The notes under the pieces are model-generated. The model was not told the origin of the DNA and did no database searches. It saw only the letters and a list, made by a program, of their open reading frames with translations. This document shows positions 6,166-31,800 of a DNA stretch of 64,000 nt, piece after piece. Within the stretch, counting starts at the first letter, position 1. Each line of letters opens with the position of its first letter. The position numbers were made by a program, and so were the translations under genes. This DNA comes from an uncultured delta proteobacterium. Its GTDB lineage: Bacteria > Myxococcota > Myxococcia > Myxococcales > Myxococcaceae. The stretch covers positions 352,001 through 416,000 of the forward strand of contig CAVYSY010000040.1 in assembly GCA_963771175.1 (NCBI GenBank), read 5' to 3'.

Positions 6166-6350
6166 TCCAATCCCCGGCTGGAGTGACGAACGTGACTAAT
6201 AAGACGTCCGTGTAGAAACGGGCCCCCCTTGAACAAGACATGGAGGACAGCGGACACTTGCCGGGACAATCAAGCTGTCGCGAGGTCCTCGACCTGCCGC
6301 GTCATCTTCGTGCTTCCCACCCAGCAGAGAGCCCGAGGAATCGAGTGCGC

Positions 6351-6713
6351 ATGACCATGAAGACGGCCGAAGCCGCGGAGTCGCCGGATATGGTGTTCGC
6401 CAACAGGAGGGCCCATGAGCGGGTGTCCGCCACGTTCGATGTTCGCTTCCTGGATGCCCGGGACGCGGCGCGAGCGCTGCGCGCCTACTCGCTCAATCTG
6501 TCGGCGGGGGGGCTGTGCCTGCGCACGCGCCGCTCCTACGACGTGGGCGCGCGCGTGCGCCTGCAGCTGAGCGTGAGCGGAGAGGACTTCGAGCTCGAGG
6601 GCATCATCTCCTGGGTGCGGGACGATGCCGAGGCGATCGGCGTGCGGTTCGTCGACGTCAGCGATGCGGACCAGTCCCGCCTGCAGCGCGTGGTGACCAG
6701 CTTCAAGCGCTGA
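6351..6713 (+). CDS. Single-domain PilZ protein (TIGR02266-like)
   Basis: RRAHER (RxxxR) and NLSAGG ((D/N)xSxxG) c-di-GMP-binding motifs; IGVRF near the C-terminus. Confidence 0.85.
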   Translation: MTMKTAEAAESPDMVFANRRAHERVSATFDVRFLDARDAARALRAYSLNLSAGGLCLRTRRSYDVGARVRLQLSVSGEDFELEGIISWVRDDAEAIGVRFVDVSDADQSRLQRVVTSFKR

Positions 6714-6763: not shown

Positions 6764-7251
6764 CTAGCGGTGCTGACCCTCCAGCTTCTCGTAGCGCATC
6801 ACCATGTTGTCCACCCGGACGAAGCCGCGGGCCTCGAAGAAGGAGGCCAGCTCTTCCAGGGCGTAGGCGCTCACCTCCACCCGCTTCACGCTCAGGGCCC
6901 GCTCGCCGCAACGGTCGAGCACATGCTCCATGAGCGCCTTGCCCACGCCGCGGCAGCGCCAGGTCTCCGTCACCACCAGCTCGTCCACGGTCGCGATGCG
7001 TCCGCGCAGCCGGAGCTGCGGCCGGTGCGACAGCGACACCATGCCCACGGGCCTGTCCTGCGGGTCCGCCGCCACGAAGATCTCGATCTCCGGGTGGCTG
7101 ATCACCCAGTGGACCGTCTGGGCATCCGAGCCGTGGGCGTAGCCCAGCTCGCGCAGGAGCGTGGCGAGGCTCTCGGCATCACCGCGGCGAGCGCGGCGAA
7201 TGCGGAAGGGGGGGCGTCCGGGGCGGGAGTTCTCGATGGCGTCGATTGCAC
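6764..7251 (-). CDS. GNAT-family N-acetyltransferase (5' end probably has a homopolymer frameshift)
   Basis: VDELVV..WRCRGVGKALM acetyl-CoA motif and FFEARGF. The frame extends upstream as IRRARRGDAESLATLLRELGY. A GTG at 7251 with a GGAG RBS joins this frame if the C7 run near 7208-7214 is really C8. Confidence 0.8.
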
Positions 7252-7356
7252 GGCTGCTCCAGTCTACAGGGGGGCGCCCACATCGAAAAGGGACAGGGCG
7301 GCTCCGGACACGAATCCGGGCCGCCCCGTGCTTGACGACTTCTCGCGGAGTGAGAA

Positions 7357-8412
7357 CTACGGCTGCTCGGACGCCAGGGAGCGGATGGCCGAGGTGATGT
7401 CACCCTGCTGGGGCACCGAGGCCATCTCCAGCGTGTCGGCCAGGCCGATGCCCGGCACGAACTTGCCGGCCAGCAGCCGGGGCGCCGCTACCAGCTTGTA
7501 GAAGAGCTCCTCCACCGCGCGGCGCATCAGGTGCTCACCGAAGTTGGTGACCTCGGTGTCCTCGTTGACGAAGAGCACGCGGCCCGTCTTCTCGATGGAG
7601 CCCTTGATGAGCTCCCAGTCGTAGGGCCACAGGGTGCGCATGTCGATGACCTCGGCGTCCACGCCCTCGCTGGCCAGGTCGTCCGCGGCCTTCTTGCACA
7701 GCGGCAGCGTGCGGCCGTAGCTCACCACCGTCACCTGCGAGCCCGAGCGCACCACCTTGCCCTTGCCGATGGGCACCGCGTACGCCTCGAGCTGCGGCCA
7801 CTGCGGCTTCCACTGCGAGCGGTCGCCCAGCGGCGCGTCGATCATCTTCGACAGCAGCTTCTCGTCCTCCGGCTCGCCCGGAATCCGCTCCTCGCCCTTG
7901 ATGCGCAGCAGCGCCTTGGGCTCCAGGTACATGACGGGGTTGATCTCCTGGCAGGCGGAGATCATCAGGCCGTACGCATCCAGCGGATTGGAGGGGATGA
8001 CGATCTTCCAGCCCGGGATGTGGGTGGCCGTCGCGTCGAAGGAATGCGAGTGGTAGATGGAGCCGCGGATGCCGCTGCCCACCGGGGTCTTCACCACCAT
8101 GGGCAGGTTCCAGTCCCCGTTGGTGGCCCAGCAGGTGTTGCCGGCGATCTTCAGCAGATCGATGGTGTTGTAGATGTAGTCGGCGAACTGGATCTCCGCG
8201 ACGGGCCGGGAGCCGGCCATGGCCAGACCGATGGCCATGCCGATGATGCCGCGCTCGTCCAGGGGCGAGTTCCACGCCTTCTCGAGGCCCTGCGTGGCGG
8301 TGAAGACGCCGCCCAGGGGGGCGCCCACGTCCTCACCGAAGATGTCGGTGACGCCGAGGTGCTGCTCGGCGTAGTGGAGGGCCATGCGAACGGCCTGTGC
8401 CATGTTGGCCAT
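7357..8412 (-). CDS. 2-oxoacid (probably 2-oxoisovalerate) dehydrogenase E1 beta subunit
   Basis: FGEDVG..GGVFTATQGL, NSPLDERGI, PVAEIQFADY, HSHS, EVIDMRTLWP. Confidence 0.9.
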   Translation of the reverse strand: MANMAQAVRMALHYAEQHLGVTDIFGEDVGAPLGGVFTATQGLEKAWNSPLDERGIIGMAIGLAMAGSRPVAEIQFADYIYNTIDLLKIAGNTCWATNGDWNLPMVVKTPVGSGIRGSIYHSHSFDATATHIPGWKIVIPSNPLDAYGLMISACQEINPVMYLEPKALLRIKGEERIPGEPEDEKLLSKMIDAPLGDRSQWKPQWPQLEAYAVPIGKGKVVRSGSQVTVVSYGRTLPLCKKAADDLASEGVDAEVIDMRTLWPYDWELIKGSIEKTGRVLFVNEDTEVTNFGEHLMRRAVEELFYKLVAAPRLLAGKFVPGIGLADTLEMASVPQQGDITSAIRSLASEQP

Positions 8413-8415
8413 GGG

Positions 8416-9423
8416 TTACTTCCTCTCCGCGAAGATGTGGTTCCAGATGGTCTCGGGGGCCGGCAGCGGCTCCTCGCGGACCTGACGGGCCATGGCGGCC
8501 ATGTCCTCGGTGTAGCGGTTGCGCAGGTCGTCCATCTCCTTGCGCGAGAGGACGCCGTGCTTCTCCAGGCGCGTCTCGAACTGCGCCAGGCAGTCCTGCT
8601 CGTTGCCCACGAAGTTGGCGCCGGACGCCGAGGAGTGCCCGTACAGGCGCGACACCATGGCCTCCATCAGGAACGGCTTGCGCTCCTTGCGCACGTACTC
8701 CATCGCCTCCTGCAGCTCCTGGTAGGCGTTGATGGGATCGTTGCCGTCGATCGTCTTCGTGCGGATGTTGAAGGCCTTGCCGCGATCCGCCACGTGGGTC
8801 TCGCCGTGCTGGGTGTCCGCCGACGTGGAGATGCCCCACTTGTTGTTGGTGACGATGATGAGGAGGGGCAGCTCGCTGCCCGGGCGCGAGCTCCACACCA
8901 GGCACGAGGCGAAATCGCCCTCGGCCGTGCCCGCGTCACCGCCGGTGACGATGGTGATGCCGTCGCCGCCGTGGCGCTTCTGCGCCAGCGCCGTGCCCGG
9001 GGCCATCACGTACTGGACCTCGATGGGGGAGGACACCGGCGCGATGTTCCACTCGCGCTTGGAGAAGTGGCCCGCGAAGTTGCGGCCGCCGGAGTAGGGG
9101 TCCGCCGCCACGTTCTTCATCTGCCGCAGCGCCCCGATGGGCTCCTCGCCCAGCGCCATCATCGTGGCCGACTGGCGGTAGTGCGCGTGCAGGTAGTCGT
9201 AGGCCGGGCCCTGGCCCTTCTTCATGAGCAGGCCGAGCGGGACGTTGAAGGCCTCCTCGCCGGGGCCGCCGATCCAGAAGTACCCGTGGCCCTGCTTGTA
9301 CATCTGGATGAGGCGCTCTTCGAGGACGCGCGCCTTCACCATCAGGTCGTGCATCCGGACCAGGAGCTCCCGATCGAGTGGGAGCGAGTCTTCTTCGCGA
9401 TTGAGGAGGCGGGGTTTTGGCAC
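8416..9423 (-). CDS. 2-oxoacid (probably 2-oxoisovalerate) dehydrogenase E1 alpha subunit
   Basis: TPP motif GDAGTAEGDF...NNKWGIS and RLYGHS; adjacent to the beta subunit gene. Confidence 0.9.
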   Translation of the reverse strand: MPKPRLLNREEDSLPLDRELLVRMHDLMVKARVLEERLIQMYKQGHGYFWIGGPGEEAFNVPLGLLMKKGQGPAYDYLHAHYRQSATMMALGEEPIGALRQMKNVAADPYSGGRNFAGHFSKREWNIAPVSSPIEVQYVMAPGTALAQKRHGGDGITIVTGGDAGTAEGDFASCLVWSSRPGSELPLLIIVTNNKWGISTSADTQHGETHVADRGKAFNIRTKTIDGNDPINAYQELQEAMEYVRKERKPFLMEAMVSRLYGHSSASGANFVGNEQDCLAQFETRLEKHGVLSRKEMDDLRNRYTEDMAAMARQVREEPLPAPETIWNHIFAERK

Positions 9424-9753
9424 GCGCGTCTCTCTGGGTTGAAATAGGGGGATGAGCGGGGCCCCTCATACCCCAAAGGTGCCCCGAATACTCAAGGGCC
9501 CCGTGCCGGATCCGCCGTCCCGATTTTGCCGCGCTGCGGCGTGCGCAACCCCCTGTTCGCGGCCGACTTGCCGCCTCGTGCCGCACGCCTGGGAAGGTGA
9601 GGCTGCTGGACGTGAGTAGGGTGTTTGATGGTGGGGTTGTCCGAGGACAGCGACGCCAGATGGACTGGCGGCGGGGGCCAATACCCGAAGTGGAGCCGCT
9701 CCCGCACATCCAGGCGGATCCAGCTACCCTCTAGGTTTCTCATGGAGTTGCGC

Positions 9754-9806: not shown

Positions 9807-11579
9807 GTGTGCCCCTTGTCGAAATCCAACCTGTCGCCCAGACCCGAATCCGCGCCCGAGCCTGAAGCGGATGGTTCCTCCGCGCCGCTCAGTGCGAGTG
9901 ACTTCACTGCCACGCACACGAAGATGGCCGGCTACACCGCCACCTCCCTGTCCCCGCTGCATCCCGAGGCGACCGGCACCATCGTCGCTCCTCTAGAGGC
10001 GGGTGAGTTGCCCGACGTGGCCGCCGTGCGCGGGCTCCGGCTGGATCAGATCCTCCTCTTCACCACGGGTACGCTGCTGGTGCTGGTGGTGGGGCTGCTG
10101 GCCTTCGTGGCCACCGTGTCCAGCAAGAGCCAGTTCGAGGAGACCTCCGAGCGCTTCAAGCTGCGCATCCAGGATCAGGCTCGCGAGCTGGGCCAGACGC
10201 TCAGCCACACCCTGGCCCTCACGTCGGCCACGTCCCTGCGCGACAACAACTACGCCTTCCTCGGCGAGGTGGCGCGCTCCATCATCTCCGACAACCCCAA
10301 CATCCTCCGCGTGCAGATGTACGACGCGGAGGGGTTGCTGGTGGCGGACTCGAAGGAGGACGCGAAGCTGGGCGAGTCCACCGAGCGCAAGCCGGAGCGG
10401 CGCTGGGTGAGCGCGCTGTATGGTGGCAAGCCCATCATCGAGTACCAGGAGCCCATCGACTACGGTGCCCAGATTGGCAAGGGCATGGTCGTCATCAGCT
10501 ACTCGCTGGACGCGCTGCAGACGATGCTGCACGAGCTGGAGACCACGCGCACCGAGGCGCTGCGCCGCAACACCCTCACCATGGCCGGGCTGGGCGTGGG
10601 CTTCGTGCTGCTGGCCGGCATCCTGGTGGCCTTCCAGAGCCGGCGCATCACCCGACCGCTGGGCGTGCTCACCGTCAAGGTGATGCAGCTCGCCGCCGGT
10701 GACCTGAACGCGCGCGCCGAGCCGGCCCGCGGCGCTGGACGCGAGGTGCTCACGCTCGGCGTGGTGTTCAACCACATGGCCGAGCGCATCCGCGTGCTGC
10801 TGGACGACGTGCGCGCCAAGGCGCAGCTCGAGCGCGACGTGTCGCTCGCTCGCACCGTGCAGGAGACGCTGCTGCCGGGCCGCGAGGGCTACCAGGTGGG
10901 GCCCCTGCGCATCGCCGGGCTCGTGGTCACCGCGGATGCCTGCGGCGGTGACTGGTGGACGCGCTCCGCCCTGGACGAGCGGCGCGTGGTGGTGGGCATC
11001 GGCGACGTCACCGGCCACGGTCTGGCCACCGCGCTCGTGGCCACCAGCGCCACCAGCGGTTTCGCCGCCGCGATGACGATGCGCCATCCGGAGGAGATCT
11101 CCGCCCAGGGCCTCATCTCCTCGCTCAACGTCACCCTGGCCAACATCGGCCGGGGCGAGCACCAGATGTCCAGCGCGCTGGCCGTCATGGACGTGCAGAC
11201 GGGCGTCATCGATTACGCGAGCGGCGGTCACCCCAGCCCCATCGTCTACAGCCGCTCCACGCGCCAGGTGGCCTCGCTGCCCGCGCGCGGCGCGCTGCTG
11301 GGCGCCTCGGTGAACTCGCAGTACGCCTCGCGCCAGGCGCAGCTCCGGCCGGGCGACATCATCGTCTGGTACACGGACGGCCTCACCGAGTCGCGCGACG
11401 CCGCCCAGAAGCAGTACGGGACCCAGCGCCTGGCCGCCGCCATCCAGGCCCACGCCCACCTCTCCGCCGAAGCCCTGCGGGACGCCATCCTCGCCGATGC
11501 GCGTGCCTTCAGTGCTGGCCAGCCCGCGCACGATGACATCACCGTCGTCGTCGCCGAATTCGCTCCCGCCTCCCCATGA
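9807..11579 (+). CDS. Membrane sensor: 2 TM + periplasmic domain + HAMP + SpoIIE/PP2C (RsbU-like) phosphatase
   Basis: Two TM segments, HAMP (ITRPL...EV..LGVVFNHMAER), ARTVQETLLP, GGDWW, IGDVTGHG, YTDGLTE, HDDITVV. Exact start uncertain. Confidence 0.9.
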   Translation: MCPLSKSNLSPRPESAPEPEADGSSAPLSASDFTATHTKMAGYTATSLSPLHPEATGTIVAPLEAGELPDVAAVRGLRLDQILLFTTGTLLVLVVGLLAFVATVSSKSQFEETSERFKLRIQDQARELGQTLSHTLALTSATSLRDNNYAFLGEVARSIISDNPNILRVQMYDAEGLLVADSKEDAKLGESTERKPERRWVSALYGGKPIIEYQEPIDYGAQIGKGMVVISYSLDALQTMLHELETTRTEALRRNTLTMAGLGVGFVLLAGILVAFQSRRITRPLGVLTVKVMQLAAGDLNARAEPARGAGREVLTLGVVFNHMAERIRVLLDDVRAKAQLERDVSLARTVQETLLPGREGYQVGPLRIAGLVVTADACGGDWWTRSALDERRVVVGIGDVTGHGLATALVATSATSGFAAAMTMRHPEEISAQGLISSLNVTLANIGRGEHQMSSALAVMDVQTGVIDYASGGHPSPIVYSRSTRQVASLPARGALLGASVNSQYASRQAQLRPGDIIVWYTDGLTESRDAAQKQYGTQRLAAAIQAHAHLSAEALRDAILADARAFSAGQPAHDDITVVVAEFAPASP

Positions 11580-14110
11580 GTCTCATGAGACGTCCTCCTC
11601 GTCCCCTGGTGCGCCGCCTTACGGCGGCGCTGGTCCTCATCAACTCGCTGGCTGGCACGGCCTCGTTCGCCCAGTACCGCCCACCGCCCATGACCGAGTC
11701 CCAGCGGCTCGTGCGTGAGGGTGAGTCGGCCCAGGTGGACGCGAGCTCCGCGGCCACCTCCGGCGACAAGAAGCGCGCCGACGCCAAGTACCGCAAGGCC
11801 CTGGAGCTCTTCGGCAAGGCGCTCGCCGAGGAGCCCGGCTCCGTCGAGGCCGCCGCCGGCCTCGGCGCGGTGGGCGTCGCGCTGCAGGAGCACGCCCTCG
11901 TGGTGGAGAAGGTGGGCCCCGTGTACGCCGCCCACCAGGACTCGCTCGACCTGGCCTACCCGCTGGGCATCTCGCTCTTCAAGCTGCGCCGCTATGACGA
12001 GGCGGTGCCGGTGATGCAGCAGGTGTCCGCCGCCAACAAGCCCGAGCACCTGCTCGTCCACTACTACCTGGGCAACTACTACGTCCTGGGCTCCGCGAGC
12101 GGCGACGAGGCCGTGGTCGAGCTGCAGACGTACCTGGCGCAGCGCCCGGACAAGATCGCCGCCAACGACTACCAGATCCACGAGCTGCTCGGCCGCGCCC
12201 ACCTGATGCGCGGTGACGCGGCGGCGGCGCGGCTCTCCTTCGAGCGCGCCCAGGCGGGCCGCACGGAGTCCGTCTCCATCCAGATGGGCCTGGCCCTGGT
12301 GCTGGAGATGGAGGAGCGGATGGGCGAGGCCATGGCCCTGCTCTCGGGCCTCACCGTGCGCTTCCCCAATGTGCCCGAGGCGAAGGAGCGCCTGGGTCGG
12401 CTGCTGCTGGCCTCGTCGGATCTGCCGGGCGCCGAGGCGCAGGCGCTGGCCCAGGTGAAGCTGGGCAGCACGCCCACCGCGCACATGCTGCTGGGTGACG
12501 TGCGCATGGCCCAGGGCCGTGCCGCCGACGCCGAGGCCGAGTACCGCAAGGTGCTGGAGCTGGCCCCGGGCGACGTGGCCGCGCAGATGGCCGTGGGCCT
12601 CGCGCTGCAGAAGCAGAACCGCAACGAGGAGGCCATTTCCTTCCTGGATGCCGCCGTGCAGTCCGGCGCCGACAGCCTGGAGCTGTGGGCCGCACTCGGC
12701 TCGGCGAACCGCCGCGCCGGCCGCTACCAGCGCGCCGTCGAGGTGCACCGCCGCGTGGTGGAGATGGCGCCCAATCTGGCCTACGGCCACCTGCTGCTCG
12801 GCGCGGACCACTTCGTCACGGGCCAGTGGGACCAGGCCATTGACGACTACGGCAACGCGCTCAAGGCCGAGCCCGAGCACGCCGAGGCCAGCAAGTGGCT
12901 GGCCCGCGCGTTGGCCTTCCGCGCGAGGGAGCGCGCCGGGGCGAACCGGATGGATGACGCCGTGCGCGACCTGCGTCGCGCCTTCGACCTGGAGCGCGAC
13001 GCGGCCATGGCCCGCCGGTTGGGCGCGGCCCTGCTGGAGCAGGGGGCCCACGCCGAGGCCCGCATGGTGCTGGAGCAGGGCGTGAAGTTGCCGGACGTCA
13101 CCTGGCGCGAGCACCTGCTGCTGGGTTACGCGCGGCTGGGCTCGGGCAATGCGCAGGAGGCCCTCGCGGCCTTCGAGCAGGCCGGGCAGATGGCCCCGGA
13201 CGTGGCCTCGCTGTCGGACGTGGCGGCGGGCACCGCGCTGGCGGAGATGGAGCTGGGCCGCACGGACGAGGCGCTCAAGCGGCTGGCCGAGCCGGGCAAT
13301 TCCAAGCGCGCCATCCAGGTGACCAAGGCCAACCTCTCGCGCGCGCACCTGCGCCGGGCCTTCTCCCGCCTGGAGTCCGGTGACGCCGCGGGCGCCCGCC
13401 AGGACGTGGAAGCCTCCGAGCGTGCCGGCATCAACTCGCAGGCCGAGCTGGGCCGCCTGGCGCAGTTCGCCAAGGCGCTCGTGCAGGTCGAGGAGGGGCG
13501 CTTCGCGGACGCCAGCGCGGGCCTCAAGCGCGCGCTCAGCCCGACCCCAGCGTGGAGCCGGCCCAACACCCGCCAGCTCGCCGACGCCTACGTCTTCTAC
13601 CGCCGCGACATGATGCCCCATGCGCGCAGGCTGCTGACGACGGCCGCCAAGCGCTCCATCCCGGAGCAGTCGCAGTGGCAGAACGCCCTCACCAGCGCCC
13701 TCCACCGCCGCGAGGCCGAGCGCGCGTACAACTCCGGCAACATGCGGGCGGCGGAGAAGGCCCTCAAGGCCGCGCTGGCCCTCGCGCCGGACAGCGCCGC
13801 CCTGCAGCACAACCTCGCTTGCGTGGCCTACCGCGGCGGCAAGTCCGCCGACGCCGTGGCCACCTGGAAGCGGCTGGAGGGCGCCGTCCCCCAGGCCACG
13901 CTCAACCTCGGCATCGACGCCCAGGAGCGCCGTCGCAGCGTGGGCGAAGCCGTGGATGCCTACCGCCGCTACGTCGCCACCGGCGGCCCGCGTGCGGCCG
14001 TCGTGCGCGAGTGGAAGGAGCGGCTCCAGATGCTCTACGGCTTGTCCGACCCCGCCCCCACTTCCAACCCCGAGCCCTCCAGCGCCACCGCTTCGGACAC
14101 CACGCCATGA
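11576..14110 (+). CDS. Exported tetratricopeptide-repeat protein
   Basis: Signal-peptide-like N-terminus (ASFA-Q), many TPR-like helical pairs (e.g. AEAEYRKVLELAP, AIDDYGNALKAEP). ATGA overlap with the upstream gene. Confidence 0.85.
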   Translation: MSLMRRPPRPLVRRLTAALVLINSLAGTASFAQYRPPPMTESQRLVREGESAQVDASSAATSGDKKRADAKYRKALELFGKALAEEPGSVEAAAGLGAVGVALQEHALVVEKVGPVYAAHQDSLDLAYPLGISLFKLRRYDEAVPVMQQVSAANKPEHLLVHYYLGNYYVLGSASGDEAVVELQTYLAQRPDKIAANDYQIHELLGRAHLMRGDAAAARLSFERAQAGRTESVSIQMGLALVLEMEERMGEAMALLSGLTVRFPNVPEAKERLGRLLLASSDLPGAEAQALAQVKLGSTPTAHMLLGDVRMAQGRAADAEAEYRKVLELAPGDVAAQMAVGLALQKQNRNEEAISFLDAAVQSGADSLELWAALGSANRRAGRYQRAVEVHRRVVEMAPNLAYGHLLLGADHFVTGQWDQAIDDYGNALKAEPEHAEASKWLARALAFRARERAGANRMDDAVRDLRRAFDLERDAAMARRLGAALLEQGAHAEARMVLEQGVKLPDVTWREHLLLGYARLGSGNAQEALAAFEQAGQMAPDVASLSDVAAGTALAEMELGRTDEALKRLAEPGNSKRAIQVTKANLSRAHLRRAFSRLESGDAAGARQDVEASERAGINSQAELGRLAQFAKALVQVEEGRFADASAGLKRALSPTPAWSRPNTRQLADAYVFYRRDMMPHARRLLTTAAKRSIPEQSQWQNALTSALHRREAERAYNSGNMRAAEKALKAALALAPDSAALQHNLACVAYRGGKSADAVATWKRLEGAVPQATLNLGIDAQERRRSVGEAVDAYRRYVATGGPRAAVVREWKERLQMLYGLSDPAPTSNPEPSSATASDTTP

Positions 14111-15015
14111 AATTCCTTCGCTCGCTCATCCTGGGTCTCGCGCTCGTCGGCGCGGGGGCTCCTGTTGCTGGCGCGGCCCCCAAGAAGGCCACCCTGGGCG
14201 TCTTCCTGCCCACCACCCTCAACGAGGGCCAGCAGCGCTTCCAGTACGCCGAGGCGCTCGCCGAGAAGCTGTCCACGGCGACCGGCCGGCCCACGGCGGC
14301 CAAGAGCTTCGCCCGCTACGAGGACTTCTCGAAGGCCGTCTCCGAGGGCATCGTCGACTTCGCCGTCGTGGACTCCTGGGCGGCCGTGCAGCTCGGCAAC
14401 AAGGCCACCCCGGTGGCGCTCGCGCAGCTGTCCGGTGAGACGTCCCAGCGCTGGGCCATCGTCTCCACCTCGAAGAGCTCGGTGAAGGAGCTGGCCGGCG
14501 CGCGACTCGCCATCGTCAAGGGCGCGGGCGCGACGGATCCCAAGTTCGTCACCAACGTGGTGCTGGCCGGTGACCTGGACGCCAAGAAGCACTTCAAGCT
14601 CACCTCCGTGCCCAACGTGGAGTCCGCCCTCAAGATGCTGGAGGCCAAGGGCGCCGAGGCGGCCCTGGTGCCGCTGACGCACGTGCCGCAGGGCGTCAAG
14701 GTGCTCTACCGCAGCAGCAAGGTGCCGGGCGCCGTGCTCATGGGCATGCGCGGGGATGCGGATGACCTGAAGGAGAACCTGAAGAAGCTCGATGCGGTGG
14801 CCCCCTTCGGGGCCTTCGTCGCCGTGCAGGGCAAGGAGCTGGAGGACTTCGGCAAGCTGCTCCAGCGCGGCCCGCCCCGCCGTCAGCCAATGTTGGTGGA
14901 ATCCGGTTCGCTCAAAGTGGAGACGAAGGCCTTCCTCGATCCCCAGTCGCTCCAGCCCGTTCTGCCCTCCTTCGCCGATGCCCTGGATGTGTCCGCGGAA
15001 CAGCCGGATGACTGA
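14107..15015 (+). CDS. Periplasmic binding protein-like (PhnD/SsuA/transferrin-type fold)
   Basis: Signal peptide MKFLRSLILGLALVGAG; YEDFSKAVSEGIVDFAVVD, SVKELAGARLA, SALKMLEAKGAEAALV. ATGA overlap with the TPR gene. Confidence 0.7.
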   Translation: MKFLRSLILGLALVGAGAPVAGAAPKKATLGVFLPTTLNEGQQRFQYAEALAEKLSTATGRPTAAKSFARYEDFSKAVSEGIVDFAVVDSWAAVQLGNKATPVALAQLSGETSQRWAIVSTSKSSVKELAGARLAIVKGAGATDPKFVTNVVLAGDLDAKKHFKLTSVPNVESALKMLEAKGAEAALVPLTHVPQGVKVLYRSSKVPGAVLMGMRGDADDLKENLKKLDAVAPFGAFVAVQGKELEDFGKLLQRGPPRRQPMLVESGSLKVETKAFLDPQSLQPVLPSFADALDVSAEQPDD

Positions 15016-15038
15016 CGGGGTAGGGGGCGCGACTCCTG

Positions 15039-15066
15039 CTTCATGAAGAGATAGAGTAGTTACAAT
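15039..15066 (+). promoter_or_regulatory. AT-rich candidate internal promoter upstream of the TonB-dependent receptor
   Basis: Palindrome CTTCATGAAG (15039-15048) followed by -10-like TACAAT (15061-15066) in an otherwise GC-rich context. Confidence 0.4.
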
Positions 15067-15186
15067 TCAACAACCCGGGCGTGAGGGACCGTCCGCCAAT
15101 CCTGGCGGCGGAGGCGTGTTGCGGCGGGCAACCACCGGACACGGACTCGAGCGGCTCTCACCCAATTCGTGGGACGTCAGAGAACG

Positions 15187-17508
15187 ATGCACTCGACTCG
15201 AATCGGTTGGCTGCGGAGCAAGGCTCTCTTGGGGCTGATGTGCGGCGTGGTCGCCGGGAGCGCCGCCGCGCAGACGAAGTCCTCCCCGTCGGCCTCATCG
15301 CGGGCCGCCGTCAAGGGAGCCTCGAAGGAGGAGCAGGTCGCCGCGGCGGAGCCGATGACGGATTCTCCGCGCGCGCCCAAGGGGCAGAAGTCGAAGCTGC
15401 CGATGCCGACGCGTGGCGCGGCCCTGCCCGATGCGGCTCCGCCCAGCAACGTGCCGCAGCGCTCGCCCTTCACTGGCCCGGTCAGCACGCGCGCCCTGCC
15501 TCCGCCCTCGAGCCTCGCCGGCCTGGACATCCCGGAGCCGGTCGCCGCCCAGGAGGGGGGCGCCTCCCTCGAGGAGTCCGTGCAGCAGCTCCTGAGCGAG
15601 GTCATGGTCTCCACCGCGTCCAAGCGCAACCAGCGCATCGTGGACGTGCCGATGACGGTGTCCTGGATTTCCGCCGAGGAGCTGGAGGGCACCGGCCAGT
15701 TCACCCTGTGTGAGGCCATCCAGTACTTCCCCGGCATGGAGTGCCGTCGCGGCTCCATGCGCAAGGCGGCGGTGAGCGCGCGCGGCCTGGGCTCCAACTA
15801 CCTGTCCAACCGGCTCCTGCTGCTCAAGGATGGCCGGCCGCTGACGGACCCCTGGACGGGTCAGTTCTACGCGGACGAGACCACGCCGCTGAGCAACCTC
15901 AAGCAGGTGGAAGTCATCCGCGGCCCGGGTTCCTCGCTGTACGGCTCCAACGCCTTCAGCGGCGTCATCAACATCATCGAGCGCCAGCCGTCGGACCTGA
16001 TGAAGGATGGGCGTGACTGGGGCGTGGACGCGCGCCTGCTGGCCGGCCAGAACAGGACCTGGCGGGCGCAGGCCACCGCGGCGGGTCGCGGCGGCCCGGT
16101 GGAGGCGCTGGTCAGCTACTACGGCCTGAGCTCGGACGGCCCGCAGCTCTTCAACGACCCGCAGAAGGGCATCACGGACAAGAACGAGGACTCGCTGGTG
16201 CACCAGGTGAGCGGCAAGGTGCGCGTGAAGAGCGTGTCGCTGGACGCCGACTTCACCAGCGCGGAGATCGGCCGGCCGGGTGGCAAGCAGATCACCACCA
16301 CCGGCAACTGCGGCCGCTGCCACTACACGCCCAACGACGTGGAGCGCGTGCAGAACCTCAACGCGAGCGCGCAGGTGGACCAGCAGGTGACGGACAACCT
16401 GCGGGTGTTCGCCCAGGGCTATGCCTTCTTCAAGCGCCGCACGGTGGATCAGGAGAACATGATCACCGGCGACCTCCAGGCCGCGCTCGGCAAGCGCCGC
16501 CGGCTGGGGGCCGAGGCCCGCGCGCTGCTCTCCCTGGGGGACCTCTCCGTCACCTTCGGCGGTGACTTCAAGAACGACCTGGTCAACAACCAGAACGTCC
16601 TGTCCGGCCTGACCGCGGACGACACCACCCAGGACATCCTCGGTGGCTTCGTGGACGCGGAGTACCGGCCCTTCAGCAAGCTGGTGCTCGGCGCGGGTGC
16701 CCGCTACGACCGGTACATCATCCCGGAGAAGGTCTGGGCCATGCGCACGGACCAGCTCTCCCCGCGCGCCAGCGTGGTGTTCCACGCGCTGCCCGCGCTC
16801 ACCCTGCGCGCCAACTACGGCCGCGCCTTCCGCGCGCCCACGCTCGCGGAGCTGGCCATCAACCAGCAGATGTACGGTGCCACGCTGCTCGGCAGCCCGA
16901 ACCTGCGCGCGGAGACGCTGGACACGGTCGAGGCCTCGGTGGACTTCTGGCCGTTCGACCGCAAGGTCCGCATGACGGGCACGGGCTTCATCAACTACGC
17001 GAAGAACTTCATCAACCAGGAGTACCTCTTCGGCTCCACGTCGCAGTTCAAGAACATCGGCAACGCGCAGGTGCGCGGCTTCGAGCTGGAGGCGGCGGCA
17101 CAGGTGGCCGCCATCAACTCCTCGTTCGACGTGGCCTACCAGTTCCTGGATGCGCGCGCGCTGGCCTTCGATGGCAGCACGTCGGGGCCGCTGGACTACG
17201 CGCCCAAGCACCGCATCTACGCACGCGGCCGGACGAACTTCGGCAAGGTCGCCTTCGCCGAGGTGTACGGCCTGTTCGTGGGTGAGCGCTTCGATCCGGG
17301 CTTCCAGGTGGACTCCACCACCGGCGAGGCCAAGCGCGTGTCGCTGCCCAGCTACGTCACCGCCACCGCGCGCGTGGGAGCCAACATCACCGAGGGCCTG
17401 TCGGTCTCGCTGCTCGGCTCCAACCTCTTCAATGCGCAGTACGAGGAGTCCCACGGCTTCCCGGCCCCCCCGCTGAGCGTCTTCAGCGAGATCAAGTACC
17501 AGTACTGA
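15187..17508 (+). CDS. TonB-dependent receptor
   Basis: Signal peptide, TonB-box-like EVMVST, plug motifs (LLLKDGRP, VEVIRGPGSSLYGSNAFSGVINII), NYGRAFRAPT, NLFNAQY, and a terminal aromatic beta strand EIKYQY. Confidence 0.93.
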   Translation: MHSTRIGWLRSKALLGLMCGVVAGSAAAQTKSSPSASSRAAVKGASKEEQVAAAEPMTDSPRAPKGQKSKLPMPTRGAALPDAAPPSNVPQRSPFTGPVSTRALPPPSSLAGLDIPEPVAAQEGGASLEESVQQLLSEVMVSTASKRNQRIVDVPMTVSWISAEELEGTGQFTLCEAIQYFPGMECRRGSMRKAAVSARGLGSNYLSNRLLLLKDGRPLTDPWTGQFYADETTPLSNLKQVEVIRGPGSSLYGSNAFSGVINIIERQPSDLMKDGRDWGVDARLLAGQNRTWRAQATAAGRGGPVEALVSYYGLSSDGPQLFNDPQKGITDKNEDSLVHQVSGKVRVKSVSLDADFTSAEIGRPGGKQITTTGNCGRCHYTPNDVERVQNLNASAQVDQQVTDNLRVFAQGYAFFKRRTVDQENMITGDLQAALGKRRRLGAEARALLSLGDLSVTFGGDFKNDLVNNQNVLSGLTADDTTQDILGGFVDAEYRPFSKLVLGAGARYDRYIIPEKVWAMRTDQLSPRASVVFHALPALTLRANYGRAFRAPTLAELAINQQMYGATLLGSPNLRAETLDTVEASVDFWPFDRKVRMTGTGFINYAKNFINQEYLFGSTSQFKNIGNAQVRGFELEAAAQVAAINSSFDVAYQFLDARALAFDGSTSGPLDYAPKHRIYARGRTNFGKVAFAEVYGLFVGERFDPGFQVDSTTGEAKRVSLPSYVTATARVGANITEGLSVSLLGSNLFNAQYEESHGFPAPPLSVFSEIKYQY

Positions 17509-17517: not shown

Positions 17518-18375
17518 TTGAGATTCGCCCTACACCCGGAGGCCGCCCCCGGCCTCCAACTCATCGCAGATGTCTCCCTGGCTCCCGCCGTGCTGGAGCA
17601 GGCCGCGCCCGCGCTCGTGCGCAGCGGTCTGCCCCTGGTGTCGGGGGCGGGGAGCTCGCGTGTCCCGGCGCGCGAGTTGGTACTTTTCGACGGTCGCCTG
17701 GGTCCGTCCCACGCCGCCCTGCTGGAGCGGGACCCTCCGGCCCTGCTGCTGGCCACTCGTGAGGCGGGGGGCACCCCGTCCGAGTGGGAGGCTCGGGTGC
17801 TGGCCTCGCTCGTGCGGGGCGAGTCGCTGCTGCCCCCGGACGCGGCGGGGGCGAAGCTGTGGCTCGAGCGGGTGGCTGATCTCAAGGTCGCCTCATCCGA
17901 GGTGGCCGCGCTGGTGGAGTCTTCCGGGGGCAGCCGGAGCGCGGCGAACCTCGCGGCCGACGTGATGCACGAGCTGGCGGCCAACGCGCTGCTGGACGCG
18001 CCGGCGGATGCCCAGGGCACGCCGTACTACGCCCACCAGCGCGATTCGGTGGTGGCCGTGGCCCCCGAGCACGTCTGCCAGGTGTCGATGGCGGTGGGGG
18101 AGGGCGGCATCTACCTGGAGGCGGTGGATCTCTTCGGGCGGTTGACGCCGGAGCCCATCGCGAGGGCGGTCTCCTCGCTGGGCGGGCGAGCGCAAGTGAA
18201 CGCTTCCGGGGGTGGGGCGGGGCTGGGAATGCGCCGCATCCTGGAGCACTGTGATCTGATAGCCGTACGCGTGGTGCCCGGGAAGGAAACCCGGATGCTG
18301 GGCGTGGTCGGTTTCGGGGAGGCGCGACGCCGCGCCGCGTTCCCCAAGTCGTTGCTGTACTTCAAGTCGGAATGA
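17518..18375 (+). CDS. GHKL/HATPase-like protein (RsbW/anti-sigma kinase-like)
   Basis: N-box-like HELAANALLDA, G1-like AVDLFG, G2-like GGGAGLGM; no HisKA H-box. Confidence 0.6.
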   Translation: MRFALHPEAAPGLQLIADVSLAPAVLEQAAPALVRSGLPLVSGAGSSRVPARELVLFDGRLGPSHAALLERDPPALLLATREAGGTPSEWEARVLASLVRGESLLPPDAAGAKLWLERVADLKVASSEVAALVESSGGSRSAANLAADVMHELAANALLDAPADAQGTPYYAHQRDSVVAVAPEHVCQVSMAVGEGGIYLEAVDLFGRLTPEPIARAVSSLGGRAQVNASGGGAGLGMRRILEHCDLIAVRVVPGKETRMLGVVGFGEARRRAAFPKSLLYFKSE

Positions 18376-18386: not shown

Positions 18387-21300
18387 GTGGAGACGCAGTC
18401 TTCCAACGCCACTATCAGCCGCGTGCGAGTGGGTACCATCAACCACGTTCGCATCGCTGGCGTCATCGACGAGACGTTCCCGCTGACGGCATCCTCTCCG
18501 GACCTCGGTGGGCTCATCATCGTCGACCTGGGCCAGGTGGAGCGCATCAGCTCCTTCGGCGTGCGGCGGTGGATCGAGTTCGCCAGCAAGATGCCCCCCG
18601 GGGGCATTGGCTCTACGTGGTCAACGCGCCACCGGTGATGGTCGACCAGCTCAACATGGTGGAGGGCTTCTCCGGCGTGGCGCGGGTGCTGTCGGTGCTG
18701 GCGCCCTACACGTGCCGCGCCTGCGACGAGGATCGGCTGCGCCTGGTGGATCTGCAGGCGGAGGCCGCGGTCATCGCCGACGGCCGCGCGCCGGAGCACT
18801 CCTGCCCGGTGTGTGCCGGCAAGCTGGAGTTCGCGGATCTCCCCGAGCGAGTTCTTCGACTCACGCCAGGCGCCAGCAGTTCGGCACGGTGGATCCGGTG
18901 GTGATGCGCTACCTGCGCGCCACCACGCCGAGCGCGCCCGCCGCGCTCACCACGCACCTGAAGATCATCCAGGACGACATCACGTTCATCTCCCTGGCCA
19001 GCGAGCTGAAGGGGGACCTGAACGTGCGCCGGCTGGCCTCGGGCCTGGAGGGGCGCGTCGCCTTCGACTTCGCGCACGTCACCAAGGTGGAGCCGGAGGC
19101 CGTCGGCAAGCTGGAGCAGGTGCTGGCCACGGCGGCGCAGGGGGCCAAGGAGGTGGTGCTGTGCCGGCTGCCACCGCCGGCGCTCAATCGCCCTGGCGCG
19201 CTTCACCCGGCCGCTCACCGCGAAGATCGCCACGTTGTGGCTGCCGTGCGAGTGCCGCAACTGCGGCCATGAGCACCAGCAGCGCGCCCTCGCTTCCGAG
19301 TACCTCGCCAAGCTGCGCGCCAACGCCAGCCCGGAGCGCGAGTGCCCCATCTGCGGTGGCACCGCGCGCCTTCCCTCCGTCCCCCAGCTCCTGCCGCTGC
19401 TTGGACGCTCGGCGCTGGTGGACCGGCCGATGGACGACATCGAGGCGCTCGAGCCGCGCGCCCTCAGTCAGTACCTCTTCGGCTCCACCAACGTGGACCC
19501 GAGCGCCAACAAGGGCACCACCTCGGACATCAGCAGCTCCATCGACAACAAGCTGCAGATCATCCGCCGGCTGGGCCAGGGTGGCATGGCGGAGGTGTTC
19601 CTCGCCAAGCAGGTGGGCGTGAAGGGGTTCGAGAAGTTCGTGGTGATGAAGAAGATTCTCCCGCAGTTCGCGGAGAACTCTGAGTTCGTCGACATGCTCT
19701 TCGCCGAGGCGCGGGCCAACGCGCGCCTCACGCACCCCAACGTCGTGCAGACGTTCGACGTGGGCATGTCCGGTGGCGTGGCGTACATCCTCATGGAGTA
19801 CGTCCGCGGCCCGGACCTCAAGAAGCTGCTGAACGAGCTGCGGCGCAAGGGGGTCGCCCTGCCGCTGGAGCACGCGCTGCGCATCGTCGCCGAGACGGCC
19901 GCGGGCCTGCACTACGCGCACAGCTACGTGGATCCCGCCGGCGTGCCCCACCCGGTGGTGCACCGCGACGTCAGCCCGCACAACGTCCTCATCTCGCTCG
20001 ACGGTGCCATCAAGCTGAGCGACTTCGGCATCGCCAAGGTCCAGGGCGAGGAGAACACCCAGGCGGGCGTGCTCAAGGGGAAGATCTCCTACATCTCCCC
20101 GGAGGCGGCGGCCGGCCGGCCCCTGGACGCGCGCAACGACGTGTTCGCCCTGGGCGTGGTGCTCTTCGAGCTGCTCACCGGCCAGCTGCCCTTCAAGCGG
20201 GACCACGACGCGGCCACGCTCAACGCGATCGTTCGCGAGCCGGCGCCCATACCCTCGCAGCTCAGGCCGACCATCCCCCAGGACGTGTCGGACCTCATCC
20301 TGCGTGCCCTGGTGAAGGATCCGGCGCGCCGCACGCCGTCCGCCGCGGCCATGCGCGAGGAGATCGAGGCGGTGATGGCCCACCACCGGCTCAACTCGTC
20401 GCCGGCGGCGGTGGCCCAGTTCTTCAAGGTGACGCTGGGCGAGCGGCTGGCGGAGTTCGGCCCCGTCACCAGCGGCCCTCATACCGGCTCGTACCCGAGT
20501 GCGGGCACGGGCAGCGGTGCTCGTCCGTTGGCCCCGGGAGGAACGGGGGAGATGATGGCACCCGCGGACTCGTCCCTGCGGTCCGGGACGGGCTCGCGGC
20601 CCAGCGCGAGCGGCACCGGGCAGTATGGCGGCTCCGTGCCTCCGCCGCCTCCTTCGGCGGCAGCGCGTCCGGTGGCGCCTCCACCGCCCGCTTCAGGGTT
20701 CCCCACGGAGGATCGTACCGAGGTCTACCGGCCCGTGCAGCAGGGCCTCATCGCCCAAAACGCGATGTCGCCCGAGCCTCCGAGGGCGAACCCGGCGGCC
20801 CCGCCCGCGAGGCCCTCGCAGTCCGGCATGCCTCCCATTCCGCCTCCGCCTCCGCCCACTGTGGCGTCGCGTCCGGCGGTCACGGCTCCGCCCGTTGGTG
20901 CTCAGGGCGTGCCCATGGCGTCGCGGCCCTCCGGCTCCGGGCCGGTGGCGCCGCCCCGTCCGTCCGGGCCCGCGTTGCAGCCGGCGATCCCGGTGGACAC
21001 CCGCACGACGACCCAGACGGTCCCCGCGTCCGTTCCCGTGGCCGCTCCTCCTGCTGCCCACAAGGCTCCGGCGGCCCCCAAGGCTCCGGTCGCGGCGGCT
21101 CCGGCCCCATCCGCACCATTGCCCGCCGCGAAGTCCTCGGCGTCCAAGTGGATCGTCATGGGCATCACCGGGCTCCTGCTGCTCGCCGGTGCCGGCGTGG
21201 TGGTCTCGAAGATGGGCTCCGGGAGCGGCATCGAGGTGATCAACCTCGAGGCGGGTGAGCAACTCTACGTGTCCGGCGTCCAGACGGATCCGAAGAACGT

Positions 21301-21640
21301 GAGTCTGGAAGGCTCCGGCATGTACGTCATCTCCACCGCCATGAACGGCCGCCTGCGCCGCTTCGGGACGACGTCGCCCAAGGATGTCATCGACGTGCGC
21401 ACCCTCCCCGAGGCGATGCCTCAGCAGGGGAGCACGGGGACGGTGCACATTGGCGGAAAGGCTGGCTGCTACGTGAAGGTGGGCACGGAGATGCTCTCCG
21501 GTTCGACGCCGGTGAAGGCCAACATCGAGGCCGGCCGCGAGCTGGAGATCACCGTGACCTGCCCCGGTCAGTCCCTGTGGATTCAGCGGGTGCTGGCGGT
21601 GCCAGGGCAGGAGCTGGAACTCACGCCCACGCCCCAGTAA
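18387..21640 (+). CDS. Membrane Ser/Thr kinase with two N-terminal STAS-like + Zn-ribbon modules; frameshifted near 18605, 18850-18865 and 19185
   Basis: STAS-like IAGVIDE...IVDLGQVERISSFGV; CRAC...CPVC; second STAS-like segment; CRNC...CPIC. Kinase motifs LGQGGMAEV, VMKK, HRDVSPHN, DFG, YISPE. Then a Pro-rich linker, one TM and a beta-rich C-terminus. GTG at 18387 with GAGGAG RBS. Confidence 0.8.
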
Positions 21641-28666: not shown

Positions 28667-28876
28667 GGGTCCCCTTCTGGATGCGGCCATACCAAACGAT
28701 ATGGATGTTGCACGTGCCACCAGGGCTGAGCCTTTCCGGCAATGCGCGTTTTTCGCTAGGGTAATCACTGCGCAACATTCGGACAGGGTCGCAAGACAAT
28801 GTCTGCAGAGGGGGGGGGAGTCCAGTTCCTCCTTGAAGAACAGTCCAAGCAGTTTTCCAAAAGGAGCAGGTGGGTC

Positions 28877-31800
28877 ATGAAGATCAATTCCGGCAATCCG
28901 GTTCGTCACACGTCCATCACGGGTCCGAAGCACGACTCGAGCGCCTTGATGGCCATGGGCGAGCTGAGCCTGATGTCGCCTCCCATCTCGGGTGAGGCGA
29001 TGAAGAACGCCATCCTCAAGGGCATCGCCGACGGGGACAACAAGGCGGCGTCGGGCGAGTTCAAGGTCGTCCAGCAGTGGGTGGACAAGAACGGGGACAA
29101 GCTGTCGCCCGAGGCGCGGAAGATGTTCGACGTCTACGCGTCCTATGCGGGCCGCGCGCAGGCCGCTGGCCACCCGGGACTGTCCCAGGCCGAGATGAGC
29201 CGGATGCAGGCGGACATGAACCGCACGCTGGTGTCGGGTAACACGGGCTGGGTCCCGCCCACGCACACCGAGATTCCGCCCGGTGGCATCATCCGCCGCG
29301 ACTTCGACGCGAGCGCGGCGGCGGCTCTGGGCAAGCTGGACAAGACGCCGGGGATGATCAACGGCGACGAGATGATGGAAGCCATCAAGGAGGGCATCCA
29401 GGACCCCGATGGCCACGGCGCCTCGTCCGAGTTCAAGCAGTTCATGGACTGGGCGAAGAAGAACCAGAGCCGCCTGTCGCCCGAGGCGAAGCAGGTCCTG
29501 GGCATCTATCAGCGGCACGCCGTCATGGCGAAGCTGACGGGCCAGGAGGGCATCCCCGCCGCTGACTACAAGCGGATGATCGACCAGATGAAGAACGTCC
29601 AGGATGCCAGCGTCGCGTCCACGCTGGGCGAGCTGGACAAGACGCAGGGCCCCATCAACGGGGACCAGATGGCGGCGGCCATCGAGAAGGGCGTGCAGGA
29701 CCTGGACGGCAAGGGCGCCACCGACGAGCTCAAGCAGTTCATGGACTGGGCGAAGAAGAACGAGAGCCGCCTGTCGCCCGAGGCGAAGCAGACGCTGGCC
29801 ATCTACGAGAAGTACGGCAAGGCGGCGCAGGCCAAGGGCCAGAGCGGTATCAGCATCGGTGACTTCAAGAAGATGGTCGCCGAGATGAAGAACGTGAAGG
29901 ACGCCAGCGTCACGGCGGCCCTCGGCGGGCTGGACAAGACGCAGGGCCCCATCAACGGGGACCAGATGGCGGCGGCCATCGAGAAGGGCGTGCAGGACCT
30001 GGACGGCAAGGGCGCCACGGACGAGTTCAAGCAGTTCGCCGACTGGGCCAAGAAGAACGAGTCGCGCCTGTCGCCCGAGGCCAAGGAGGTGCTGGCCACC
30101 TACGAGAAGTACGCCAAGGCGGCCCAGGCCAAGGGGCAGAGCGGCATCTCCGTGGCGGACTTCCAGAAGATGACCGCGGAGATGCACGCGGTGAAGGACG
30201 CCAGCGTGTCGGCGGCCCTGTCCCAGCTCGACCGCGGCTTTGGCCCCATCAACGGGGACCAGATGGCGGCGGCCATCGAGCAGGGCGTGCGCGACCTGGA
30301 CGGCAAGGGCGCCACGGACGAGTTCAAGCAGTTCGCTGACTGGGCGAAGAAGAACGAGTCGCGCCTGTCGCCCGAGGCCAAGGAGGTGCTGGCCACCTAC
30401 GAGAAGTACGCCAAGGCGGCCCAGGCCAAGGGGCAGAGCGGCATCTCGCTGGGTGACTTCTCTCGGATGGTCGCCGAGATGAAGAACGTGAAGGACGCCA
30501 GCGTGTCGGCCGAGCTGTCGCGGTTGGACCGCATGCCGGGCCCCATCAACGGGGACCAGATGGCGGCGGCCATCGAGCGCGGCGTCAGCGACTTCGACGG
30601 CAAGTCGGCCACGGACGAGTTCAAGCAGTTCGCTGACTGGGCCAAGGCCAACCCGAACAAGCTGTCGCCCGAGGCCAAGCAGGTGCTGGGCGTCTACGAG
30701 AAGTACGCCAAGGCGGCCCAGGCCAAGGGCCAGAGCGGCATGGCCCTGGTCGACTTCAAGAAGATGGTCGCCGAGATGAAGAACGTGAAGGACGCGAGCG
30801 TCAGCGCGGCCCTCGGCGAGCTCGACAAGGCCAAGGGCCCCATCAATGGGGACCAGATGGCGGCGGCCATCGAGAAGGGCGTGCGCGACCTGGACGGCAA
30901 GGCGGCCACCGACGAGTTCAAGCAGTTCGCCGACTGGGCGAAGAAGAACGAGTCGCGTCTGTCGCCCGAGGCCAAGCAGGTGCTGGGCGTCTACGAGAAG
31001 TACGCCAAGGCGGCCCAGGCCAAGGGCCAGAGCGGTATCTCCGTGGCGGACTTCAAGAAGATGACCGCGGAGATGAACGCGGTGAAGGACGCCAGCGTGT
31101 CGGCGGCCCTGGCGCAGCTCGACAGCCAGAAGGGCCCCATCAACGGGGACCAGATGGCGGCGGCCATCCAGAAGGGCATGCAGCGACCCGGACAACAAGG
31201 CGGCCACCGACGAGTTCAAGCAGTTCGCCGACTGGGCCAAGAAGAACCAGAGCAAGCTGTCGCCCGAGGCCAAGCAGGTGCTGGGCGTCTACGAGAAGTA
31301 CGCCAAGGCGGCCCAGGCCAAGGGCCAGAGCGGTATCTCCGTGGCGGACTTCAAGAAGATGACCGCGGAGATGCACGCGGTGAAGGACGCCAGCGTGTCG
31401 GCGGCCCTGGCGCAGCTCGACAACCAGAAGGGCCCCATCAACGGGGACCAGATGGCGGCGGCCATCCAGAAGGGCATCAGCGACCCGGACAACAAGGCGG
31501 CCACCGACGAGTTCAAGCAGTTCGCCGACTGGGCCAAGAAGAACCAGAGCAAGCTGTCGCCCGAGGCCAAGCAGGTGCTGGGCGTCTACGAGAAGTACGC
31601 CAAGGCGGCCCAGGCCAAGGGCCAGAGCGGCATCTCCGTGGCGGACTTCAAGAAGATGACCGCGGAGATGAACGCGGTGAAGGACGCGAGCGTCAGCGCG
31701 GCCCTGGCGCAGCTCGACAACCAGAAGGGCCCCATCAACGGGGACCAGATGGCGGCGGCCATCCAGAAGGGCGTGCAGGACCTGGACGGCAAGGCGGCCA

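Follow-up and report, generated by a model that had tools for sequence, protein, structure and literature searches.

The receptor gene and its product

The stretch of DNA analysed here, hereafter the window, is 64 kb long (64,000 bases; assembly GCA_963771175.1, contig CAVYSY010000040.1, positions 352,001 to 416,000) and derives from an uncultured bacterium of the family Myxococcaceae. The gene found at 15187..17508, on the plus strand, encodes a TonB-dependent receptor of 773 amino acids, identified as such by Pfam, by its 22-strand fold and by Foldseek. Few outer-membrane proteins have been studied as well as TonB-dependent receptors, which are known to act as transporters and in some cases to transduce signals. 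The receptor described here is distinguished by an inserted, family-defining CxxCH. The motif, CGRCH, is a candidate haem c attachment site, and is encoded by TGC GGC CGC TGC CAC at 16309..16323 (+), in frame with the receptor open reading frame (ORF), as a first-pass annotation of the window had reported.

The ORF (15169-17508, +) opens at a GTG, and the ATG at 15187 is, judging from the sequence, the likely translation start. The database copy of the protein, P0002, begins 20 codons past the GTG. Residues are numbered from the GTG unless stated, and P0002 numbers are 20 lower. CGRCH corresponds to residues 381-385 from the GTG (Cys381, Cys384, His385), 375-379 from the ATG and 361-365 in P0002. 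Codon-position GC content, which reaches 0.94 at third positions, identifies the ORF as coding. Pfam assigns residues 158-266 to Plug (PF07715, 15640..15966, +; 69.7 bits against a cut-off of 23.9, E 3.6e-19) and residues 386-753 to TonB_dep_Rec_b-barrel (PF00593; 137.7 bits against a cut-off of 27). The protein ends with an aromatic residue, in the tetrapeptide KYQY.

The N-terminus (15187..15270, +) reads in translation as a likely signal peptide, MHSTRIGWLRSKALLGLMCGVVAGSAAA. It is followed by a Pro/Ala-rich extension (15271..15597, +) predicted to be disordered, as residues 1-131 of P0002 have a predicted local distance difference test score (pLDDT) <50. The extension holds a conserved segment, APFTGP...PPPS.LAGL, in which F81 and P84 of P0002 are invariant. 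The Pro-rich segment of this region (15271-15597, +) could dock the periplasmic tetratricopeptide repeat (TPR) protein encoded nearby. A TonB-box-like segment, EVMVSTAS (15598..15621, +), aligns with ETMVVTAS, residues 7-14 of the colicin I receptor 2hdf_A. The plug hosts a Cys pair, C181 and C192, within CEAIQYFPGMEC (15709..15744, +); this pair, also noticed in the first-pass annotation, is invariant in 63/63 aligned orthologues. Counted from the ATG, the protein contains five Cys, of which one lies in the signal peptide, two form the plug pair and two belong to the CxxCH motif. The mature receptor contains only four Cys, along with six His. Rfam, promoter and terminator scans of the interval 14900-15300, which includes the 171-base gap 5' of the gene, returned nothing.

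Conservation of the CxxCH motif

Homologues were searched over 5.8 billion proteins; of 8,000 candidates scored, 549 matched at E <= 1e-10. The best 120 of the 549 matches, whose named taxa are all Myxococcota, were aligned to the window protein. C-x-x-C-H is found at the site in 121/121 aligned sequences, at identities to the query down to 57%. The pentapeptide is CGRCH in all but one, which features CGKCH, and lies in a block fitting the consensus G-N-C-G-R-C-H-Y-T-x-x-D-x-E, in which the Asp and the Glu found five and seven residues past the motif His are invariant. The 12-residue segment around the motif, TTTGNCGRCHYT, ranks fourth in conservation within the protein, surpassed only by core receptor motifs.

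A scan of 185,579 species genomes led to the identification of 60 loci, all from Myxococcota except two carrying mislabelled or generic titles. The motif is present in 59/59 loci reaching the site; the contig of the remaining locus, L056, stops short of it. Motif codons vary synonymously among loci, while the encoded residues are fixed. Conservation in orthologues, which the first-pass annotation had indicated as a check of its proposal, is therefore complete in both data sets.

Receptor families hosting CxxCH motifs

When 1.84 billion cluster representatives were searched without filters, scores fell sharply, from 969 to 239 bits, after the family to which the window receptor belongs, here called the one-motif family. 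The next relatives, P0131, P0133, P0137, P0185 and the fragment P0167, have two CxxCH motifs each, located 20-23 residues apart. The second of these aligns with the motif in the window, and the two share the pattern C-G-x-C-H-x4-D-x-E. Both motifs are conserved in 15/15 members of this two-motif family (13 found in a search started from P0131, plus P0133 and P0167), most of which contain exactly four Cys. The next-best matches to P0131 after the two-motif proteins are members of the one-motif family; CxxCH is absent from 101 further receptors (P0283-P0383). In a FastTree tree rooted on four receptors lacking the motif, the two families form sister clades, with 59 tips and support 0.983 for the one-motif proteins, and 10 tips and support 1.0 for the two-motif proteins. 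The plug Cys pair is restricted to the one-motif family. Gly and Val are found at these positions in two-motif proteins, which have a near-invariant His at the plug apex in its place.

In a third, unrelated receptor, P0264, the sequence GNTCGSCH is found one hairpin later, in the extracellular loop L4 according to the alignment. P0264 and its 22 nearest relatives (29-73% identity), some of which are named Candidatus Polarisedimenticolia, all have the motif G-[TSR..]-x-C-x-x-C-H. They are 23 of the 84 proteins listed, and the motif is absent from the other 61. Many proteins of the P0264 family have no Cys beyond the motif. This family gained its CxxCH independently.

In the three families, CxxC found beyond residue 40 is followed by His in 174/174 cases. 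CxxC occurs in only 3 of the 293 other receptor-like proteins compared, and His follows in none. The window receptor differs in this from known transporters, as none of the 293 has CxxCH in its mature part. The frequency at which CxxCH occurs by chance, estimated from 200,000 shuffles of the 773-aa sequence, is 1.9e-4, and that of CxxC is 0.026.

Structural model of the receptor

An AlphaFold2 model of the receptor was built from 63 orthologues (mean pLDDT 77, predicted TM-score 0.78). Foldseek matched it to Cir, BtuB, PqqU, ChuA and ShuA, all at probability 1.00, with E-values ranging from 6e-33 to 2e-28 and target-normalised TM-scores of 0.64-0.88 to Cir, BtuB and transporters of the ChuA/ShuA type. 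DSSP assigned 24 segments, which correspond to 22 strands if two 2-residue breaks are counted as bulges. The first barrel strands are located, in P0002 numbering, at 264-273, 277-288, 291-302, 322-333, 336-348 and 371-386. Connections of 2-4 residues alternate with long ones, the pattern that periplasmic turns and extracellular loops, respectively, should give. In the canonical topology of TonB-dependent receptors, odd-to-even strand connections face outward.

The motif falls inside a 22-residue loop (16273..16338, +; P0002 349-370) connecting strands 5 and 6, which in the model is the extracellular loop L3. The strand-like segments noticed at its two sides in the first-pass annotation coincide with these strands (P0002 336-348 and 371-386), and the modelling suggested there as a check places the loop on the extracellular side. 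In the model of the two-motif protein P0131 (AlphaFold2, mean pLDDT 72), both motifs similarly fall in L3, which is 48 residues long and lies between strands 5 and 6. A short helical turn is found at each motif, where confidence is <52.

Mean column identity, calculated on 120 orthologues, is 0.93 at the plug apex loop DGRPLTDPWTGQFYADETTPLSN (15829..15897, +), 0.90 in L3 and 0.89 in L7, whereas it is 0.78 in the strands and 0.51-0.81 in other loops of at least 5 residues. Because L3, L7 and the plug apex outrank both strands and other loops in conservation, the three regions may form together a conserved pocket on the outer face. L7 (16834..16911, +) features FRAP and SPNL boxes around the invariant pair Met568-Tyr569, and no His is found between the boxes. 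Met568 and Tyr569, as well as His539, are candidate distal ligands of a haem. In haem transporters, L7 is reported to supply an axial ligand between FRAP and NPNL boxes, a Tyr in PhuR (PMC10418163); at the ligand position, the window receptor differs from haem receptors in having Met-Tyr. Because similar boxes occur in Cir and are widespread, FRAP/NPxL boxes are not specific, and the assignment of L7 as a haem-ligand loop is only a lead.

Genes flanking the receptor

The receptor gene is embedded in a group of genes encoding putative signalling proteins, all transcribed from the plus strand. A membrane protein with HAMP and SpoIIE/PP2C phosphatase domains, in which two transmembrane segments flank a periplasmic part of about 150 aa, is encoded at 9807..11579, and has weak likeness to SiaA. 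A periplasmic TPR protein with a signal peptide (11576..14110) and a PhnD-like periplasmic substrate-binding protein (14107..15015; PF12974, E 2.8e-10), whose signal peptide was read from the sequence, are encoded next. Downstream of the receptor gene, a cytoplasmic protein of 285 aa (17518..18375) matches no Pfam or NCBIfam family. Its Atlas neighbours are clusters denominated 'ATP-binding protein', some with HATPase_c_2, and it is probably an RsbW/SiaB-like GHKL ATPase, an assignment to be taken as a lead only. A Ser/Thr protein kinase is encoded at 19235..21640, and has one transmembrane segment near residue 640. At the kinase N-terminus (19235-19400, +) a Cys-rich stretch, C-x-C-x2-C ... 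C-x2-C, resembles a cytoplasmic zinc ribbon.

Synteny was analysed by tblastn in loci of the one-motif family, counting only those with enough flanking DNA. The phosphatase and the TPR protein are each encoded near the receptor in 44/46 loci, the binding protein in 48/54, the 285-aa protein in 44/47 and the kinase in 27/34. The conserved order is HAMP-PP2C, TPR, binding protein, receptor, ATPase-like protein and Ser/Thr kinase. The genes remain together even when rearranged, the upstream operon being inverted in L046 and L048, and the receptor gene being the first in L052. The exceptions are L053 and L058, which have no upstream genes, and L049, L051 and L058, which have no downstream pair. 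The association of the receptor with the adjacent cluster, postulated in the first-pass annotation, is thus supported by gene order.

In two divergent loci, a PLP-dependent (pyridoxal phosphate) enzyme and an ornithine-cyclodeaminase-like protein are encoded 5' of the receptor (L047:2169-4176, L053:7786-9791), a pair which we take to resemble SbnA/SbnB. Lantibiotic-dehydratase-like genes are found downstream in L047 and L049. These neighbours hint at a link to a small-molecule pathway.

Cytochrome genes in related loci

In L043, L050, L052 and L058, the receptor gene adjoins a gene encoding a 650-aa lipoprotein with four C-terminal CxxCH motifs, here called the tetrahaem lipoprotein, which weakly matches MtrC/MtrF domain II/IV (PF22113, E 3.3e-6, below the cut-off). 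The tetrahaem lipoprotein is always accompanied by a 346-aa lipoprotein lacking family matches (L052:7255-8295, L058:13699-14880, L043:17611-18663, L050:145-1263). In L058 the tetrahaem gene begins 13 bases past the receptor stop codon. In L052 the genes abut each other, in the order tetrahaem lipoprotein, partner lipoprotein, receptor and HAMP-PP2C. A di-haem peroxidase similar to MauG/MbnH is encoded near the receptor in L046, L049, L050 and L052.

L058 is the first branch of the one-motif family (support 0.979). L052 comes next, at a weak node (0.669), and the node that follows is also weak (0.61). Because early-branching relatives pair the receptor with a surface tetrahaem lipoprotein, these loci suggest that the ancestral role of the receptor was in electron exchange at the cell surface.

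Comparison with known systems

The window receptor is similar to Cir, BtuB and ChuA/ShuA/PhuR in the plug, the 22-strand barrel, the TonB-box-like segment and the FRAP and NPxL-like boxes of L7. It departs from the Cir/BtuB/ChuA type in having a long disordered N-terminal extension, and in being encoded within a signalling cluster in place of an uptake operon. Its best NCBIfam matches are haem/haemoglobin receptor subfamilies, yet for no NCBIfam receptor family does its score reach the cut-off.

Cyc2 is described as an outer-membrane barrel with a single CxxCH-bound c-type haem, matured before insertion (PMC8406198). The two proteins have in common the outer-membrane beta-barrel and the single CxxCH. 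They differ in that Cyc2 is described in the same paper as a 16-strand porin without plug, preceded by an N-terminal cytochrome domain, whereas the window motif is a short insertion, at residue 381, and the extracellular loop that holds it belongs to a plugged barrel with 22 strands in the model. No sequence relationship between the two was seen, and the Cyc2 motif PxFAR[Q/K][T/Y] is absent, as judged by eye, from the receptor translation.

Cache domains of the DUF3365/Tll0287 type are a further parallel, as they too host a short CxxCH element within an extracytoplasmic fold that is not a cytochrome. The inserted motif is reported to be exceptionally conserved, to bind haem c, and to serve for sensing when the domain is fused to signalling modules (PMC12889525). 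The difference lies in the fold and the compartment, a periplasmic Cache domain in one case and an outer-membrane barrel loop in the other.

Transducers of the FecA type share with the window receptor an N-terminal extension and the genetic link to an inner-membrane signalling protein. FecA-type signalling through an STN domain was considered and discarded, as Pfam detects no STN domain and the N-terminus is predicted to be disordered. The partner also differs, being a HAMP-PP2C phosphatase with kinases and not a FecR/ECF sigma pair. In OprC, also a TonB-dependent receptor, Cys and His contribute to a metal site that faces the outside of the cell (PMC11836926); this site has the form CxxxM-HxM, in contrast to the CxxCH found here. 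Porin-cytochrome conduits of the MtrCAB type find a parallel in the four related loci in which the barrel gene adjoins that of a multihaem cytochrome in the form of a surface lipoprotein. Unlike in those conduits, the barrel is a plugged receptor and would be haem-bearing itself; a periplasmic decahaem partner was not seen, and the window has no such genes.

A full-text literature search, from whose coverage most subscription journals are missing, found no TonB-dependent receptor with a haem c motif or covalently bound haem. Terms for the receptors and for haem motifs co-occur in PMC3403914, PMC11492766, 10.1101/2025.05.29.656830 and PMC5615132, none of which is about such a protein.

Haem, metal or disulfide

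We interpret the window protein, with somewhat more confidence than doubt, as a TonB-dependent receptor in which a c-type haem attachment site has arisen in the extracellular loop L3. The first-pass annotation had proposed a receptor that is either haem-c-bearing or involved in metal or redox sensing. The data support this wider proposal, which embraces both the haem and its main rival, and within it point to haem, because the sister family has two CxxCH motifs, the P0264 family has a separate one and cytochrome genes are located beside early branches. A haem c site would be expected to show an invariant His after the second Cys, duplication of the motif as a whole unit, independent gain, rarity of CxxC elsewhere and cytochrome neighbours; all five features are found, and neither a disulfide nor a metal site calls for any of them.

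The residues could alternatively make up an ionic metal site, in which two Cys and the His coordinate Cu, Zn or Fe in the vestibule, and the receptor imports or senses the metal without any haem. There is a precedent, since OprC is TonB-dependent and is reported to bind copper through Cys, Met and His residues in a CxxxM-HxM arrangement (PMC8610252, PMC11836926). A metal could be coordinated by the Cys2-His set together with the invariant Asp and Glu that follow, one or two sites could be built from the four Cys and two His of the two-motif family, and the lack of cytochrome genes in the window is in keeping with such a function. Yet a metal site needs no His right after the second Cys, and one is present in all 174 CxxC of the three families; the sister family duplicated the motif as an entire CxxCH unit, cytochrome genes adjoin early-branching members, and free surface thiols of an aerobe would tend to oxidise. 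A metal site is unlikely. A disulfide, either structural or redox-active, that shapes L3 or senses oxidants, with the His kept for another reason, such as a contact with the substrate, and no cofactor at all, is to be regarded as less likely still. Loop disulfides are common in TonB-dependent receptors, the alignment reveals a Cys pair in L7 of Cir, and the second invariant Cys pair of the window receptor, in the plug, is most simply a disulfide. Periplasmic CxxC is moreover reported to be readily oxidised by DsbA (PMC3601427). The Cir pair, however, is more widely spaced (C-x3-C), any CxxC is rare in the other receptors compared (3/293), and a disulfide leaves unexplained the invariant His (174/174), the tandem CxxCH of the sister family and the cytochrome neighbours. 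A chance, functionless motif may arise somewhere when many windows are inspected, the probability per shuffle being that given above. This origin is ruled out for practical purposes by conservation, as the motif is invariant in all 121 aligned orthologues and in all 59 loci covering it, while its codons change synonymously.

Several observations weigh against the assignment of a haem to L3. The case for haem at CGRCH rests wholly on sequence. Pfam finds no cytochrome c domain in the receptor, only Plug and barrel. Cytochrome genes with CxxCH are absent from the 64-kb window, as are homologues of the tetrahaem protein and of the peroxidase, and in most crown-group loci no cytochrome is encoded within 10 kb of the receptor. 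Membership of the haem/haemoglobin receptor families was rejected on account of scores well below the cut-offs (TIGR01785, 179.5 against 316.85; TIGR01786, 163.5 against 323.75). The His that haem receptors usually have in L7 is missing. Within the modelled barrel, confidence is lowest in L3 (pLDDT 54-64); this would fit a missing cofactor, but proves nothing. For the distal ligand there are only candidates (Met568/Tyr569, His539), a haem-loaded loop would need to pass through the barrel assembly step, and the signalling role of the receptor has synteny as its sole basis. To our knowledge, haem c has not been described on an extracellular loop of any characterised integral outer-membrane protein.

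If L3 does carry a haem c, the following sequence of events may be envisaged. The receptor would be exported by its signal peptide, the only step with direct support in the sequence. Before the protein folds, haem would be joined to Cys381 and Cys384 by the periplasmic cytochrome c maturation machinery, with His385 as the proximal ligand. Maturation systems are said to accept minimal CxxCH peptides for haem attachment, as Braun and Thony-Meyer reportedly found in 2004. Upon insertion of the barrel, L3 would bring the haem into the extracellular vestibule, in the pocket formed by L3, L7 and the plug apex, where the invariant Met568 or Tyr569 of L7 may be the sixth ligand. The haem could there act as a fixed centre sensing redox state or small ligands, or as an electron-transfer station. 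Its state might be relayed through plug, TonB box and N-terminal extension, first to the TPR and binding proteins in the periplasm and eventually to three other products of the cluster, namely the HAMP-PP2C phosphatase, the ATPase-like protein and the Ser/Thr kinase.

A broader, decidedly more tentative scenario accounts for the three families together. TonB-dependent receptors may have become outer-membrane cytochromes at least twice, once in Myxococcota, where one-haem and two-haem sister families would have originated, and separately in Polarisedimenticolia-like genomes. One or two haems located in the vestibule above the plug would provide an energy-coupled or gated station, either for electron exchange with multihaem lipoproteins at the surface or for redox or gas sensing, and in crown myxobacteria the station would be wired to the PP2C/kinase module. 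Such proteins would represent a class of outer-membrane cytochromes distinct from Cyc2 and from conduits of the MtrAB type. Should a haem be bound, the one-motif receptor would exemplify a second route, besides Cyc2, to a cytochrome in an outer-membrane barrel, in this case on the outer face.

The Myxococcus xanthus locus

The genes of the M. xanthus locus, L021, are in the same order as in the window. From gene order and locus-tag arithmetic, the M. xanthus orthologue of the receptor is probably MXAN_4559. MXAN_4559 is listed as a TonB-dependent receptor (PMC3222651), and its detection in outer-membrane vesicles is reported in PMC4158809. The mxan4562 product, a HAMP-domain protein, is described as the only phosphatase of the SpoIIE-like type in M. 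xanthus (PMC2887360). A haem in the receptor would provide a concrete input for the conserved myxobacterial phosphatase/kinase cluster, which by gene order includes mxan4562, and the haem claim is cheaply testable in this tractable model organism.

Directly upstream of the cluster, genes encoding E1 beta and E1 alpha subunits of a 2-oxoacid dehydrogenase (7357-9465, -) are syntenic in many loci. By the tags used in the literature they match MXAN4564/4565, MXAN4564 and MXAN4565 being described as the E1 alpha and beta genes of the branched-chain keto acid dehydrogenase (PMC4048283). A GNAT acetyltransferase gene (6764-7399, -) is located beside them, and is likewise syntenic with the cluster in many loci.

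Other features of the window

A run of genes resembling those of contractile injection systems spans 35012-51107. It includes a gene (35012-39472, +) whose 1486-aa product has an eCIS_core domain. The minus strand carries DUF6519 (41003-43270) and Tail_P2_I (43271-45646) genes, along with further large ORFs lacking Pfam matches. The coding strand of a 1092-aa ORF (28799-32077, +) is strongly A-rich, with an AT skew of 0.26-0.44 from 29000 on; only scattered sub-threshold Pfam matches are found in its 3' part, which suggests a low-complexity or repetitive protein. The genes for phosphoenolpyruvate carboxylase (2293-5181, +) and for a PilZ-domain protein (6216-6713, +) are ordinary.

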